From an uncultured virus (IMG/VR IMGVR_UViG_3300020197_002285) (taxonomy: Duplodnaviria; Heunggongvirae; Uroviricota; Caudoviricetes), in the IMG/VR virus record IMGVR_UViG_3300020197_002285: a stretch of 20,000 bases of DNA. One strand, given 5' to 3'. The notes under the pieces were generated by a model. The model saw nothing but the letters and a program-made list of their open reading frames with translations. It was not told the DNA's origin and ran no database searches. The translations under genes and the position numbers were made by a program. This document shows positions 3,794-16,511 of the stretch, piece after piece (the stretch's first letter is position 1; every line of letters begins with the position of its first letter).

Positions 3794-4336
3794 TTACGCA
3801 ACTTCGGCCCACAATTCTGATTTTGCTTCCTCCCAATATTGACGAAGATTGTTGCGGGAGGCAGACAATATTTGAGACACCCTAGATTCATGGACGCCCA
3901 TGCCATCAGCTATGTCTTTAATTTTGACTTCTTCAACGTAATGAAGTCGCAAAATCTTCTTGTTAATAGAGGGAAGCGGATCAGTAATTTTCTCAAAAAC
4001 ATCGACCTTTTCTTCTACCTTATCATTATAAGTAAGTTCTTCCTGAGACTCAAAAGATTCTGCTTTTACGGGGTTATTTCTCGAACCCCAAGAAAGCTCA
4101 CGCATATAATCTTTGATAGCACCAAAAACACGATAAGAAGCGAATATTTCAAAAGAAATGCCTAAATTACAATCAAATTTCAAAGCAGCTTCAGAAAGGC
4201 CCAAATAAGCAGCAGATTTCAACTCGTCATAATTTAAGAAAGAAGCCTTTTTTTTGGCGAAACGAGCGAGTTTGTGGGCAAGAGACAGATGAGAAACAAC
4301 GAGATTCTGTTGTTCAATAGATAATTTACCAGTCAT
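3794..4336 (-). CDS. Compact sigma-70 family RNA polymerase sigma factor, FliA/WhiG-like
   Basis: Region 2 DELKSAAYLGLSEAALKFD...FASYRVFGAIKDYMRELSW; region 4 HTH IKDIADGMGVHESRVSQI. Confidence 0.9.
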   Translation of the reverse strand: MTGKLSIEQQNLVVSHLSLAHKLARFAKKKASFLNYDELKSAAYLGLSEAALKFDCNLGISFEIFASYRVFGAIKDYMRELSWGSRNNPVKAESFESQEELTYNDKVEEKVDVFEKITDPLPSINKKILRLHYVEEVKIKDIADGMGVHESRVSQILSASRNNLRQYWEEAKSELWAEVA

Positions 4337-7926: not shown

Positions 7927-9615
7927 TTATTCTTCTTCAAACTTCTCAATAATTGATGCAATCAGAGGGTGTCTAACAATAGAACTTGCTTTGAAGTGAA
8001 TAACTCCAATGCCACTAACATCCTCTAATTTCTTGACGATATTGACCAAAGCTGTGTGACCGCCACCAATATCGCTTTGCATTGGATCGCCAGTTACAAT
8101 AATCTTACTATTTTCACCAAAACGAGTCATAAACAACTTGAGTTGCGACTTTGTTGCATTCTGAGCTTCGTCAAAAATACACACAGCATCGTCAAAGGTG
8201 CGGCCTCTCATATACGCTATGGGAGCTACTTCAATTGAGCGATTGATTATATCTCTTTGTGGGCCTTCTAAACCCACACATTTATTGATACAATCATACA
8301 TAGGAAGCATGTACGGATTCACCTTTTCATCAAAGGTGCCGGGCAAGTAACCCAAACTTTCTCCCGCCTCAACAATCGGTCTTGTGAGGATAATTCTCTT
8401 CTTCTTTTTGGCTAGAATTTCACTAATAGCGAAGGCGCAAGCCAAGTGGGTATTATGAGTAACTGTATAATTGTCTGTCAAATACAACGAATCTTTATGG
8501 TCAACAGATATGCACTGCATATCTTGTTGTTTATCAAGTTTTTCAACTCTATCAATATATCTTTTAGGGGTATATTTACTGCGTGCCTTTCTCAAACGAT
8601 TTTTTCTTGTGAGCAAGAAAACGCTTACATCATTAGATAAATTAAGATAACAACGGTAAGAAACCCTATGTTGTTTGCCATTTTTATCAACAGAACCCTC
8701 TTTCCTTTTTATTCTAGTTGAACCTCCTAAAGAATAAATTAAATGGCAGAAATTTTTAGCCATCTCCCAAGAAGTAGTACAATATGAAATAGAACCTGTT
8801 TTTTCAACAGTACCATCACCATCCATCATTCCTTGCAAAAGAGAGATTCTTTGGTCTACTGAACCGTATAAATAACACTCTGGGATGAACTTTTCGTAAG
8901 ATAACAGCCCCCAAAGGCCCAACTCTTTCAACAATTCTTTGTAAATATTTGATTTATTTGATCGTTTTGTTTTAACAATACGATGATCTATGCCTTTAGA
9001 TTTGCAAACATATCCTGTCAGCAGCAATTCATTGACATTTTGAATGATTTCTTGTTCACAAGAAGTAAAAACAACATTTGAATTTGTTATATTACCTTCA
9101 GACAACAAAATACCCATTAAATATGGAGGAATTACATAATCTTTTCTATCAAACCCCACTGGCTTTGTTGTTTTTATAGATAATACCCTTTTACCATCAA
9201 ATCGGCGGCAATTTTCCTGTAAATAAGAAGTGTCAACAACACGATTTTTCCAGCCATTATCAGCATGAGAGACTGACCAAAGATGTTCTGAGCAACAATC
9301 CACATAAGTTTCATCACTAAAATGCACTCTGAATACATCTTTCTTTCCTTGAGGGAAAACGCCAGTGACTTTTGAAAAACCTCCATCTGGATTTGCTATT
9401 TCATCTCCAATTTCAACATCTTTCATCAAAATATACCCATTACGAGTATAAAGTTTTGAATTCATAGTTAACGCTTTGCCGGTACCGGCTGGCCCCAGCA
9501 AAAATAGAACGTCGTGTTGGTCGAACGCTCCCCAAGCCATTTTTTGAGCTTGATTTTTGAATTCTAGGTGAAAGGGTGAACCTGATCTTCTACCGGACGA
9601 TTTTTCTTTTGCCAT
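7927..9615 (-). CDS. phoH: PhoH family ATPase, intein-containing (221 aa after splicing)
   Basis: GPAGTGK/T Walker A, ILTRPIVE, LGYLPG, YMRGRTF, FDEAQN, TRFGENSK, GDPMQSD, RHPL. Confidence 0.96.
   Translation of the reverse strand: MAKEKSSGRRSGSPFHLEFKNQAQKMAWGAFDQHDVLFLLGPAGTGKALTMNSKLYTRNGYILMKDVEIGDEIANPDGGFSKVTGVFPQGKKDVFRVHFSDETYVDCCSEHLWSVSHADNGWKNRVVDTSYLQENCRRFDGKRVLSIKTTKPVGFDRKDYVIPPYLMGILLSEGNITNSNVVFTSCEQEIIQNVNELLLTGYVCKSKGIDHRIVKTKRSNKSNIYKELLKELGLWGLLSYEKFIPECYLYGSVDQRISLLQGMMDGDGTVEKTGSISYCTTSWEMAKNFCHLIYSLGGSTRIKRKEGSVDKNGKQHRVSYRCYLNLSNDVSVFLLTRKNRLRKARSKYTPKRYIDRVEKLDKQQDMQCISVDHKDSLYLTDNYTVTHNTHLACAFAISEILAKKKKRIILTRPIVEAGESLGYLPGTFDEKVNPYMLPMYDCINKCVGLEGPQRDIINRSIEVAPIAYMRGRTFDDAVCIFDEAQNATKSQLKLFMTRFGENSKIIVTGDPMQSDIGGGHTALVNIVKKLEDVSGIGVIHFKASSIVRHPLIASIIEKFEEE
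8452..9474 (-). mobile_element. Class 3-type intein with LAGLIDADG homing endonuclease (341 aa)
   Basis: Begins ALTMNSK after GPAGTGK; block B CCSEHLW; LAGLIDADG-like YLMGILLSEG and LLQGMMDGDG; block F MQCISVD; ends VTHN before +1 Thr. Confidence 0.93.
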
Positions 9616-9653
9616 TTACATAATTCCTTTGTTGTATTTAGATTTTGCCAAAC

Positions 9654-9693
9654 AAAAAAGGGGATGCTTTCCAGTGATAGAAAGTCCCCTTTT
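9654..9693 (-). terminator. Rho-independent terminator, possibly bidirectional
   Basis: Minus strand AAAAGGGGACUUUC-loop-GAAAGCAUCCCC-UUUUUU; the plus strand also ends in a T run. Confidence 0.8.
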
Positions 9694-10070
9694 CTGCTTT
9701 AGACATTCGCACATTACTCATATGGCTCATTTTCCTAGAATGAACTTATTCATCAGTTAGGTGGTCCAATGCAGGTGATTGACTTCCAATCAGTCTGACT
9801 TGTGTTTCTGTAGACCATAAGAAACAACTTGGCTTACAATATTTATCCTACATTCCCATCTTCTGAATAACGAATAATCCAAATGGTTGTCATAGACAAA
9901 AGATTGCTGCTCTTTGTGGGCTTTCCGTCATTTAAGGCTGACTCGTCACCTTGTTGGCAGCTTGAGGATCGCCAACTACCCCCTTTAGGAAAGGGTCAGA
10001 ACCACTTTTAACGATAAGCGACCGCCGTGTTGAGGCAAACGGCTCCTCCTTCGCAAGAAGACTATGACAA
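9654..10070 (-). ncRNA. Candidate large structured non-coding RNA (~420 nt), family unassigned
   Basis: No ORF in the track; TATAAT at 10079-10074; 9-bp closing helix 10070-10062/9895-9887; about 12 hairpins or helices whose G-U wobbles consistently favour the minus strand; terminator at the 3' end. Confidence 0.7.
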
Positions 10071-10079
10071 AGTATTATA
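10069..10079 (-). promoter_or_regulatory. -10 element TATAATACTTT for the ncRNA candidate
   Basis: Same 11-mer as at 4417-4407; no convincing -35. Confidence 0.55.
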
Positions 10080-10111
10080 TACTTCGCCAAATAAAAACGA
10101 GAACATAAAAC

Positions 10112-10118
10112 CTAAATA
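10112..10118 (+). promoter_or_regulatory. CTAAATA late-promoter-like motif
   Basis: 5 nt before the ATG at 10124; also found at 14579-14585 (+) and 9641-9635 (-); resembles T4 late TATAAATA. Confidence 0.5.
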
Positions 10119-10123
10119 TTGAC

Positions 10124-10564
10124 ATGATGGAAGGCTTTAAGTTATTTCTAGAACAATCCGAAGAAGAGAAAAACGTCAAACAACTTCTCAAAAAGTTGCC
10201 AGCGGGACACCGCAAACTCCTTGACGGATATAAGTTTAAATATCAAGGTGGAAATACGCTCAAGGGCGATGATGGACACATAGGAGTAATTTACAAAGAT
10301 AAGATAACTGTAGCCGCTCCTTGGAATTACGGACGTGAATTCACAACTCTACACGAAATTGCTCATCTTGTTTGGGAATACAAAATGACTCCCGAACTCA
10401 AAAAGGAATGGGGCAAAATCGCAAAAAAGAATCCAAAACAAAACCAAGATAATAGTGAAGAGAATTTTGCTATGGCTTACGCATGTCATTATGCTAAACA
10501 CAAAATCAAAGTTCACGACTGTCCAGAATGGCATGACTTTATCAAAAACAAGGTGCCCAAATGA
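10124..10564 (+). CDS. Small zincin-like metallopeptidase
   Basis: TLHEIAHLVWE (HExxH) plus downstream EENFA. Confidence 0.8.
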   Translation: MMEGFKLFLEQSEEEKNVKQLLKKLPAGHRKLLDGYKFKYQGGNTLKGDDGHIGVIYKDKITVAAPWNYGREFTTLHEIAHLVWEYKMTPELKKEWGKIAKKNPKQNQDNSEENFAMAYACHYAKHKIKVHDCPEWHDFIKNKVPK

Positions 10565-10574
10565 CATTTAATGA

Positions 10575-10724
10575 ATGGATGGGGCAATGGGCGGAGCTTT
10601 CTTAGGCGGTATAACGGCTGGACCAGTTGGCGTGTTACCCGGCTGGTTGGGTGGCAAAGCATCTGAGAAACTATTTCCAAAAGAAGTACTTAACATGAGC
10701 AAAAAGAAAATGAAAGCTCATTAA
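10575..10724 (+). CDS. Small glycine-zipper peptide (49 aa), possibly the frameshifted remainder of a gene starting at 10561
   Basis: Not in the ORF track; translated MDGAMGGAFLGGITAGPVGVLPGWLGGKASEKLFPKEVLNMSKKKMKAH. Confidence 0.55.
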   Translation: MDGAMGGAFLGGITAGPVGVLPGWLGGKASEKLFPKEVLNMSKKKMKAH

Positions 10725-10735
10725 GTGCCGAAAGT

Positions 10736-10930
10736 ATGGCTATGGAAGAGGAAAAAATTGAAAAAGAGGATGAACAAGTTCAAGCACAATTTGTTGATCC
10801 TGTTTCAACAACTTTTAGCATCTGGTTAATCAAAGTCATTGTTGGCGGTATTATTGGGTCTATCGCCGGATTTTTCACCAAATTAGGTTTAAACAGGATA
10901 TTCAATAAGAAAAATTCTCAACAAGATTAG
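10736..10930 (+). CDS. Small membrane protein (64 aa)
   Basis: Acidic N-terminus, hydrophobic segment IWLIKVIVGGIIGSIAGFF, basic tail. Confidence 0.65.
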   Translation: MAMEEEKIEKEDEQVQAQFVDPVSTTFSIWLIKVIVGGIIGSIAGFFTKLGLNRIFNKKNSQQD

Positions 10931-14562: not shown

Positions 14563-14593
14563 TTATGACTCTCCTGTACTAAATAAATAAGTA

Positions 14594-14947
14594 ATGGACA
14601 CGAATTTCGACAAATTTATTGTTTTCCGAGACTACCTTGAGAGCCAAGGATCGGTCTATATTCCAGAAGCCTTCGATTGGGCCAAGGACATAGCAAAGAT
14701 ATTGCCTAATATAAGTGTTGATTTGCCTATTGTCAAAAAACAAGCGAAAATAGAAGTGGTATTAGATAAAAAAAATCCCATCTATATACAACTACAAGAT
14801 GGGTCAAAGCTGTTTTTTACACACGATGAATACAGAAGAATCAAAGGCAAACCGGAACGTGGCAGAATGATGATCTTTTCTTTGCAAAGATTACCTACCG
14901 ACTCAACGAATCTGCCTTCGCAAATTTCTCAATGTGAAGTAGTTTAA
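14594..14947 (+). CDS. Hypothetical protein (117 aa), possibly late/virion-internal
   Basis: Preceded by CTAAATAAATA; N-terminal FRDYLE motif. Confidence 0.75.
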   Translation: MDTNFDKFIVFRDYLESQGSVYIPEAFDWAKDIAKILPNISVDLPIVKKQAKIEVVLDKKNPIYIQLQDGSKLFFTHDEYRRIKGKPERGRMMIFSLQRLPTDSTNLPSQISQCEVV

Positions 14948-15106
14948 TTAATTTTCTTTTATTTCAACAACCAAATTCGGATAACGCAATTTGGCAATTT
15001 TCGCAGCTTCTTCTTTGGACATAGCTTCGATTTCTGCAACCACTCGTTCTTTTGGGTGGTCTACATATTCATTAAGAATGAATTCTACAACTTGATACTT
15101 TTTCAT
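14948..15106 (-). CDS. Hypothetical protein (52 aa)
   Basis: Start MKKYQVVE at 15106 overlaps the upstream TGA (ATGA). Confidence 0.6.
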   Translation of the reverse strand: MKKYQVVEFILNEYVDHPKERVVAEIEAMSKEEAAKIAKLRYPNLVVEIKEN

Positions 15107-15398: not shown

Positions 15399-16511
15399 TT
15401 ATTTATAGGAAGAGGATGTTTTTTTTGCCCACTCTTCCCTCCTAAGAGAAACATATTTCTTCTCCATATCGGACAGTTGGGCCATGAGTTTATTATAGTC
15501 TTCGTCGTTAATATCTTTGGGAGTTTCCACTTTTAAAGTCACAATCAAATCTCCCATCCCCGTTATTCCACCAGGAAATCCCCTGCTTTTTATGCGGAAT
15601 TTCGTATTTGTCTGACAACCTTTTGGTATCTCAATTTTATACTTTTCACTGGTCATCGTGGGAATAAAAATTGAATCGCCAAGGACCAATTGGGTATAAG
15701 AGACAGGAACATCCAACAAAAGATTATTTGCTTCTCGCTTGAAAATTGGATGATCTTTGACAATTACGACCACAAATAGATCGCCTGCCTTACCCGTCAA
15801 TCTCAAAGAATCCTCACCCTCATTGATGATTCTCAACTGAGTGCCACTAGAAATGCCTGCCGGGATTTTGACCTCTACATCTCTTTCAATAAACTCTGGA
15901 AGAAATCCATTTTTGCAATATTTACAAGCAACTGATGCGGCTTTCCCTGAACCAAGACAAACAGGACATTCAGCATTAAGCACAAATGGAGCATCTATTG
16001 CTGCCTTGATAAATCCACTTCCTGCACAATTAGAACAAGGAGAAAAAGCGGTGAACCCATTACCATTACATGAGTCACACCGCTTTTTCTTTTTGAGTTT
16101 GATAGATCTGGTACAGCCCGTATAAGCTTGATGAAAATCTATTTCAAGACGAACTTGAATATTACGACCTCGAAACGTGCTGGACACTCCAAAGAATTCG
16201 CCTACTACTTCTTCGAAGGTTTGAGAACCTGTAGTGCCTGTCTTGGGGTCTTTCCAAGTTTTTGTGCGACTACGAGTACGGAAATGCATAGACTTCCTAT
16301 TGCGACCCAAATCGTATAATGATTTCTTCGCCGGGTCACTTAAAGTCTCGTAAGCAATCGCAACTTCTTTGAACTTTTCAGGAGCTTCTGAATCACCGGG
16401 ATTAACATCTGGATGATATTCCCTAGCTAATTTTCTGTAGGCTTTCTTTATTTGTTCTTTGGAAGCCGAGTCGCTTATCCCCAATACTTCATAGTAGTCC
16501 CTATCGTACAT
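15399..16511 (-). CDS. dnaJ: Chaperone DnaJ (class A)
   Basis: J domain with HPD; CxxCxGxG zinc-finger repeats (fourth degenerate, CKYCKNG); C-terminal GDL motifs. Confidence 0.95.

Follow-up and report, generated by a model that had tools for sequence, protein, structure and literature searches.

A strand-specific, covarying RNA family with no Rfam match lies close to phoH in very large phages

Introduction

What is encoded in a long gap between two genes of a very large phage when the gap holds no sizeable open reading frame (ORF)? The question is raised by a 20,000-nucleotide (nt) stretch of lake-water phage DNA (IMG/VR record IMGVR_UViG_3300020197_002285; "the window" denotes this whole stretch), a fragment of a very large phage in which most genes lie on the minus strand. 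A gap of 508 nt, which separates the phoH start (9615) from a divergent gene for a protein of 146 amino acids (aa) (10124), contains no ORF of at least 60 aa, and only ORFs of 42-52 aa are present in 9616-10123. A reading of the sequence alone proposed that the minus strand of this gap encodes an unassigned, ornate non-coding RNA of ~420 nt with its own promoter and terminator, possibly of a new class.

The comparison presented here, in which L-numbers denote related contigs and loci, identifies a new family among the large ornate phage RNAs that is not a member of any Rfam family. Among the RNAs of bacteria and phages, very few large, multi-domain classes are known to us. The new family has exact boundaries and a six-helix covarying core, occurs naturally in both short and long forms, offers candidates for tertiary contacts, and gives a first hint that it is highly expressed in nature. 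The coordinates of all features are collected in Table 1.

Homologues in giant phages

Homologues of the RNA are present in eight further giant-phage contigs, between the gene for the 146-aa protein, which carries an HExxH motif, and phoH, or one gene before phoH. E-values of 6e-6 to 5e-9 were obtained with nhmmer, single-sequence searches included. The 146-aa protein led to the IMG/VR contig L002 (63% identity), in which the RNA lies at the same place (E 6e-6). A pattern scan of metagenomes returned 13 stretches, three of which belong to the window's own phage (100%, 100%, and 99% identical); the same scan yielded L134, a partial homologue directly upstream of an intein-free phoH. An IMG/VR search with the PhoH protein of L134 gave 14 loci, and nhmmer detects the RNA upstream in L153, L160, L148, L150, L152, and the L002 contig. 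A further member, L169, was recovered with a degenerate pattern; it is a short form (~270 nt) and lies ahead of an intein-bearing phoH. Across the family, the length of the RNA varies between ~270 and 480 nt. The related contigs measure 68-239 kb and are estimated by CheckV to represent 14-46% of a genome, which places the genomes at ~0.5 Mb.

A conserved junction with variable helices

Domain 1 (163-243 nt) is a junction closed by helix P1 and bearing the hairpins P2, P3, P4b, P5, and P6, in an order that is identical in the eight full members, seven of them distinct. Most helices of the sequence-only reading are upheld by comparison, namely P1, CUUCUU/AGGAGG (P2), GCCGU/ACGGC (P3), GUUGGC/GCCAAC (P4b), and ACAAAGA/UCUUUUGU (P6). 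The proposed helix GUCA/UGAC is replaced by P5, for which all relatives pair AAGGU with GCCUU.

The letters of the helices differ greatly between members. Six different sequences form P1, among them UUGUCAUAG/CUAUGACAA in the window, UCACGG/CCGUGA, AUCAUGG/CUGUGAU, GUACAAAC/GUUUGUAU, and UACAAG/CUUGUA. The stems of P6 read AAAGA/UCUUU, UGGGA/UCCCA, GGAGA/UCUCC, and UGCAAGG/CCUUGUA. The invariant unpaired blocks are the P3 loop (consensus UUGCC(U/C)YAA), the RCGA of the P5 loop, the junction ACGGAAAGCC, and the P6 loop GCAGCAA; unpaired blocks of 7-10 nt are kept among sequences with a mean column identity of ~45%.

The six helices P1, P2, P3, P4b, P5, and P6 covary across the family, recurring with different letters in eight members (seven distinct). 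When helices are aligned from the loop outward, 35 of the 37 aligned pair positions have changed on both sides, a count that is circular because the helices were chosen to pair; 12 of the 48 automatic picks in the underlying helix table were corrected by homology. Helix coordinates were used since whole-domain alignments by MAFFT and RNAalifold misaligned the variable middle and P1. The controls for pairing consist of two tests only. In the first, an automatic helix finder obtains totals of 32-43 base pairs from the real sequences against shuffle means of 18.5-22.6 (seven members), and none of 200 dinucleotide shuffles reaches the real total in any of the seven. In the second, a plain MAFFT alignment of nine sequences, not fitted to the structure, has P5 and P6 88.8% paired with seven of nine pairs changed on both sides; 0 of 500 shuffles reaches the latter value, at most 1 of 500 reaches any of five measures, and all slid registers score lower.

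The fold is better than that of shuffled sequences on the RNA strand only. On the minus strand the fold energy is -121.9 kcal/mol (z -2.68), and none of 100 shuffles does as well; on the plus strand z is -0.09, and 44 of 100 shuffles do as well. The RNA of L002 has a fold z of -2.59 and its own terminator. Reassignment of stop codons under four codes opens no frame at this locus in the window or six homologues, and the longest stop-free run is 50-118 codons (seven members, four codes).

Complementarity between loops suggests candidate tertiary contacts. The P3 and P6 loops match as UUGC/GCAA, as UUGCC/GGCAA in L153, and as AUCU/AGAU in L160, and by eye this pairing fits five of seven types; it is ambiguous in L148/L150 and fails in L204, in which the P3 loop contains the palindrome AAGGCCUU. 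By eye, the P3 loop has an alternative partner in an upstream GAGG, which would form an H-type pseudoknot; this also fits five types and clashes with P2 in the window.

Domain 2 is far less conserved than domain 1 and is shrunk to ~60-100 nt in L169 and L204. Its helix AAUGUAGG/CCUGCAUU and the helix UGUUUCU/AGAAACA, both drawn from the sequence alone, are borne out by comparison. In a relative, U9850 is changed to C opposite G9772 of the former helix, and C9771 is changed to U opposite G9851. Near UGAUUG/CAAUCA, GUUCAUU/AAUGAGC, and CAUAU/AUGUG, changes in relatives are confined to loops. The loop GGUCUA (9816-9811) of a hairpin in this domain could pair with UGGACC (9768-9763) as a candidate pseudoknot, found by eye, and hairpin loops in domain 2 of other members can pair downstream as GUCAC/GUGGC in L134 and L160 and as AGUU/AACU in L148.

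No match to known RNA families

None of the 4227 models of Rfam 15 matches the window at its gathering score. A permissive scan of 9500-10250 gives ten matches only, with E-values of 0.11-8.9 and scores of 10-22.5 bits, all far below threshold; the best (22.5 bits against a threshold of 50) lies on the opposite strand. Nothing above noise is found in 27 homologous or syntenic loci or in L147, a candidate member described below, and the Rfam models of GOLLD, ROOL, RNase P, tmRNA, and riboswitches give no match. The hallmarks of tmRNA and RNase P had already been reported as missing from the sequence, in agreement with the negative results of ARAGORN and the RNase P covariance models; ARAGORN detects no tmRNA in the window. 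A group I intron is rejected as an identity for the RNA, which lies between genes with its own promoter and terminator and has no match to Intron_gpI.

In the literature searched on structured phage RNAs (phoH, huge and jumbo phages, GOLLD and ROOL), no description of this RNA was found. A catalogue of 8,495 candidate RNAs of 29-151 nt from IMG/VR is available (PMC10690425). The motif of this RNA has no match in six of its supplement files; a fragment of the RNA may be among the candidates because the alignment files lay outside this comparison.

The sequence-only reading had named four findings that would speak against it: an Rfam match, a lack of covariation, a fold no better than shuffles, and the lack of a discrete transcript. 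None of these was encountered, given the absence of an Rfam match, the covariation, the strand-specific fold, and the matching metatranscriptome contigs described below. The proposal of an unassigned structured non-coding RNA, possibly of a new class, is supported.

Distribution of the family

The HExxH protein marks the locus, and a profile of this protein identifies 44 loci. R1, a covariance model of P5, the junction, and P6, scores 41-78 bits on all nine true members. Over 38 HExxH loci, R1 detects two further loci only, both on already-known contigs; together with four positives left out of this search, domain 1 is present in 6 of the 44 HExxH loci. The other loci have gaps of 9-140 nt without the RNA, other genes, or unrelated long gaps of 338-744 nt. 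Weak R1 matches at L172, L174, L175, and L152:2382 (11-16 bits, E 0.05-0.8) are noise.

The long gaps include ORF-poor stretches in the same slot on the minus strands of L198:747-1500, L208:938-1500, L213:989-1500, L209:1153-1500, and L205:1088-1500. A TATAAT-like box is present in several, and all of them terminate in a hairpin of terminator-like form (in L205, without a U tract in the stretch read). L198, L203, L205, L208, L209, L211, L213, and L188 show no likeness by nhmmer or R1 and no Rfam match. Such stretches may be further RNA genes at a plastic locus of giant phages, where differing long non-coding inserts replace one another.

L147 was considered as a member with domain 2 only and is left unconfirmed, as nhmmer with L160 or with a profile free of L147 finds nothing at E <=10. 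Its 400-nt gap before phoH (L147:800-1200, plus strand) lacks domain 1. By eye, several blocks, GGGAGGUCGCU and UUAUUAAG among them, are common to this gap and the domain 2 sequences of L134 and L160, and the gap may be a truncated relative.

Searches elsewhere were negative. No match to 9600-10130 was found by blastn in 50,697 phage records, and tblastn with a neighbouring 686-aa protein found none in phage records. The 595-kb phage record LR756511 has the HExxH protein with no gap beside it and no RNA signature elsewhere in the record. Exact-pattern scans of IMG/VR returned only the L002 contig and chance matches (nhmmer upheld 1 of 11 and 1 of 105 stretches), and a pattern scan of GTDB genomes returned five stretches, none of them real, with a best match of 35 nt (E 0.006).

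Close relatives and expression in nature

The window sequence is contained in 16 lake-water runs, with shares of 0.32-1.00; ten of these runs may be where it came from. Four runs with a small share of it were compared in detail. Close relatives, ~93-97% alike, occur in DNA contigs from activated sludge and a hot spring. In P6 of relatives, the pair A9917-U9896 is replaced by U-A and an inserted A pairs with the bulged U9898, giving eight unbroken pairs; in P5, A9951 and A9952 are both changed to G and their pairing with U9935 and U9934 is kept.

Two wastewater metatranscriptome runs of one study contain contigs of 425 nt (depth 4.1) and 399 nt (depth 12.9). The former covers 9695-10045 with 40 unlike letters at the terminator side, and the latter covers 9695-10049 with 10 unlike letters at the same side. 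They span almost all of the predicted RNA and stop short of the genes on both sides; the DNA contig from the hot spring, by contrast, continues past 10070 to 10130. The metatranscriptome contigs match the predicted unit and give a weak hint of a discrete transcript, not proof. Compensatory changes are present in these wastewater contigs.

Boundaries of the RNA gene

The coordinates assigned from the sequence alone to the TATAAT box (10079-10074), the UUGUCAUAG/CUAUGACAA helix, and the hairpin with U6 (9690-9654) are all confirmed. At the position of the TATAAT box, homologues carry a -10-like hexamer (TATAAT, TACAAT, or TAGAAT). Ahead of every terminator in the family, UUUGYGGAARUCU is recognised by eye as the relatives' form of the GUGCGAAUGUCU motif. 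The terminator ends 38 nt before the phoH start in the window and 35-60 nt before the next gene across members. Forbidding the terminator costs 7.9-19.8 kcal/mol in nine of nine folds (eight confirmed members and the unconfirmed L147), with 11.8 kcal/mol in the window. The same nine folds contain no common alternative helix that would serve as an antiterminator.

A TAAATA motif lies between the terminator and the next gene, as TCTAAATAC in the window, L148, and L150 and as CATAAATAA in L134, L160, and L147; a matching CTATAAATAA lies ahead of another window gene (15400-15407, minus strand). We take this motif to resemble the late promoter of T4-type phages. The TAAATA and CATAAATAA motifs are located 12-25 nt upstream of ribosome-binding sites (window 9635-9641 and 15400-15407; L134:380-392; equivalents in L160 and L147). 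The gene after the motif is phoH in seven of nine members; in L002 and L204 a gene of 189 aa and one of 291 aa, respectively, stand in this place, and phoH comes after them.

Table 1. Positions of the RNA, its parts, and the flanking features in the window
Feature	Position	Strand	Basis or remark
HExxH protein, 146 aa; divergent, upstream of RNA; marks locus	10124..10564	+	ORF and homologue searches
-10 box TATAAT, 4 nt upstream of P1	10074..10079	-	sequence; hexamer kept in homologues
Whole predicted RNA, ~417 nt	9654..10070	-	domain 1 (10070-9887), domain 2 (9886-9691), and terminator
P1 5' strand UUGUCAUAG	10062..10070	-	perfect 9-base-pair pairing with 9887-9895
P2 hairpin UCUUCUU-GCGA-AGGAGGA	10044..10061	-	hairpin present in every member
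P3 hairpin GCCGU/ACGGC, conserved loop UUGCCUCAAC (10038-10029)	10024..10043	-	comparison
Variable region with CUUAUCG (10018-10012) and hairpin CCCUUU/AAAGGG	9977..10023	-	length and content differ among members; relatives have 34-35 different letters between 9985 and 9988
P4b hairpin GUUGGCG/UGCCAAC	9953..9976	-	hairpin here in every member, letters unrelated
P5 hairpin AAGGU (9952-9948)/GCCUU (9938-9934), loop GACGAGUCA with conserved RCGA	9934..9952	-	comparison
Junction between P5 and P6, ACGGAAAGCC, most conserved unpaired block	9919..9928	-	comparison
P6 hairpin, conserved 7-nt loop GCAGCAA (9910-9904)	9896..9917	-	comparison
P1 3' strand CUAUGACAA, closes domain 1	9887..9895	-	166 nt downstream of 5' strand
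Domain 2, variable	9691..9886	-	helix 9854-9847 with 9775-9768; hairpin 9826-9803
Semi-conserved motif GUGCGAAUGUCU, immediately 5' of terminator	9701..9712	-	by eye
Intrinsic terminator: long interrupted hairpin, then U6	9654..9690	-	sequence and fold
CTAAATA, T4-late-like promoter motif between terminator and phoH ribosome-binding site (AAAGGAA, 9630-9624)	9635..9641	-	sequence; kept in relatives
phoH with intein and LAGLIDADG endonuclease; gene downstream of RNA	7927..9615	-	

Neighbouring genes and other stretches of the window

The HExxH protein belongs to no Pfam or PHROG family. Its invariant motif NYGREFTxLHExxH is kept in 44 giant-phage contigs (L176-L219), mostly back to back with phoH, and a weak, sub-threshold likeness to the M34/ATLF-like zincin fold (Pro-Pro endopeptidase) is detected (E 0.6 in PDB, 0.007-0.035 in Pfam). 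In the window, an intein of ~340 aa that includes a LAGLIDADG homing endonuclease interrupts phoH within the Walker A loop (GPAGTGK / ... HN / T); the first residue of the intein is apparently Ala. The same insertion is present in L169, and an uninterrupted phoH of ~225 aa is present in L134, L147-L160, and others. Other window genes encode glycosyltransferases, a 2OG-Fe(II) oxygenase, a dUTPase, DnaJ, and a sigma-like factor of 180 aa (3794-4336). No tRNA or tmRNA gene is found in the window by ARAGORN.

The gap had been described as the only long ORF-free stretch in the window. The absence of any ORF of at least 60 aa in 9616-10123 stands, but "only" is slightly too strong, as long minus-strand genes are also absent from 10565-10901 and 14563-15102. 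Neither of these has an Rfam match in the window-wide scan, and the latter contains a 117-aa plus-strand ORF at 14594-14947. One of the three metagenome copies of the window's phage, L137, has 15 extra bases, a multiple of three, near 10646 (within 10626-10670); this insertion lies outside the RNA, in a stretch with short ORFs only.

Discussion

By a slight balance of probability, the RNA is a stand-alone, stable, and abundant molecule of ~420 nt that acts in trans and represents an uncatalogued family of ~0.5-Mb phages. A stand-alone RNA with phoH transcribed separately is supported by the variable next gene, the conserved TAAATA motif, and the lack of a common antiterminator, and action in trans is favoured by the late-type promoter motif that phoH has to itself beyond the terminator. 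Transcription would start a few bases after the -10 box, at the foot of helix P1, and would stop at the RNA's own strong terminator, with phoH served by the separate late-type promoter motif. The conserved loops are probably the working surface. By analogy with GOLLD and ROOL, the probable role of the RNA is that of a compact scaffold that works in trans and binds a protein, other RNA, or copies of itself, and not that of a cis-acting switch of phoH.

Several points weigh against this reading. The claim that the RNA has its own promoter and terminator holds for the -10 box and for the hairpin with U6, but a simple consensus scan finds no -35 match upstream of the TATAAT box, and the promoter, made up of this box and a conserved upstream AAGYA motif, falls short of the full sigma-70 consensus. 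The same scan of the window lists neither the promoter nor the terminator of the RNA, which it missed because there is no -35 match and because the terminator stem is broken by a 2-nt bulge. A single study is the source of the RNA-library contigs, and libraries of this kind can contain DNA; the transcript ends are those of assembled contigs, and the strand and abundance of the transcript are presumptive. Some substitutions run counter to the fold: U10061 to C in the hot-spring relative would break the outermost pair of P2, A9888 is changed to C in P1 (its partner is not covered), G10019 is changed to A, and in a ~87%-alike variant U9812 to A and U9768 to G lose two of the six pairs of the domain 2 pseudoknot. 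The circularity of the pair count belongs here as well.

The remaining objections are those that point to the chief rival, a cis-acting leader of phoH, either a riboswitch or an attenuator that senses a protein, RNA, or tRNA, which we consider unlikely. Domain 1 would be the sensor and the terminator (9690-9654) the expression platform, with read-through setting the expression of phoH. The RNA is always upstream of and co-oriented with the next gene (nine of nine members, with phoH next in seven) at a leader-like spacing of 35-60 nt, ~38 nt in the window; domain 1 resembles an aptamer in being a closed junction with invariant unpaired bases; and in the short forms L169 and L204 it is followed almost directly by the conserved motif and the terminator, as an aptamer would be. 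RNA libraries are also rich in terminated riboswitch leaders. Against a leader stand the lack of an antiterminator, since blocking the terminator is costly in every fold and the alternative folds share no element, the different next gene in L002 and L204, and the conserved late-type promoter motif between terminator and gene. For a leader, 420 nt and a second, variable domain would be unusual, and in related phages the same two genes stand just 9-140 nt apart and have no RNA between them.

A bolder version of the stand-alone RNA, in which the family constitutes a novel class of ornate RNA, self-assembling or catalytic, that is specific to ~0.5-Mb phages, is improbable. If self-assembly were true, the P3 and P6 loops (UUGC/GCAA, AUCU/AGAU in L160, and AAGGCCUU in L204) would be contacts between molecules, and the RNA would form an RNA-only multimer made early in infection, the third phage RNA assembly beside GOLLD and ROOL.

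A divergent or rearranged form of a known catalytic RNA, above all an RNase P-like RNA that processes the many tRNAs of a giant phage, is very improbable. By eye, L150 reads GGAAAGUCCGG and L002 reads CUUAUCGGU, which we liken to the pair of blocks that is most conserved in bacterial RNase P RNA; in the window, CUU could pair with the AAG of the ACGGAAAGCC block, and the length lies within what we take to be the size range of bacterial RNase P RNA. On the other hand, no RNase P model of Rfam matches at E <=10 (9500-10250 and L147) or at E <=1 (27 loci), the CUUAUCG-like block precedes the GGAAAG block, which is the reverse of the order in the RNase P P4 pseudoknot, where the 5' conserved block pairs with the 3' one and the rest is enclosed, the pairing is short and loses one pair of the window's GCUU/AAGC through G10019 to A in close relatives, and the window has no tRNA gene.

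A spacer in decay or in rapid evolution (for instance, what is left of a gene or of a mobile insertion) that retains a promoter and a terminator by chance would suit a plastic locus (domain 1 at only 6 of 44 HExxH loci, others with unrelated gaps of 338-744 nt or extra genes) beside a phoH with a homing-endonuclease intein, yet it is scarcely credible for helices that double changes preserve among sequences with little else in common, 7-10-nt unpaired blocks conserved at ~45% mean column identity, a strand-specific fold, and no open frame under any stop reassignment.

Comparison with known systems

Bacterial RNase P RNA is similar to this RNA in length and in two short blocks that look like its most conserved motifs; this RNA differs in having no model match, a reversed block order, and no recognisable specificity or catalytic domain. 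Riboswitch and attenuator leaders share with it a multi-helix junction that is closed and includes invariant unpaired nucleotides, as well as a terminator a short way ahead of a gene. They differ from this RNA, which has no antiterminator, a varying next gene, a promoter motif behind the terminator, a large second domain, and no match to a riboswitch or leader model of Rfam.

Short non-coding RNAs from intergenic regions and 5' untranslated regions are described for jumbo phages such as 201phi2-1 and phiKZ (PMC11512511). As described in the part of that source considered here, they are likewise promoter-to-terminator units between genes of very large phages; they are short and come from unrelated phages, in contrast to an RNA of ~420 nt with a covarying architecture, and are set apart from it by description only.

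There is a likeness in kind to GOLLD and ROOL, large ornate RNAs of phages and prophages, which are also phage-encoded, hundreds of nucleotides long, and multi-domain, with pseudoknots, conserved loops, one conserved and one variable region, and no known protein partner or function. The present RNA is shorter (~270-480 nt), lies beside phoH rather than tRNA islands, and matches neither Rfam model. According to the sections of a preprint considered here, GOLLD and ROOL assemble into multimeric RNA-only nanocages through intermolecular kissing loops, and some of these intermolecular contacts were first read as tertiary covariation (bioRxiv 10.1101/2024.12.08.627333). The complementary P3 (UUGC) and P6 (GCAA) loops and the palindrome of L204 could, at the level of sequence only, provide comparable contacts for assembly.

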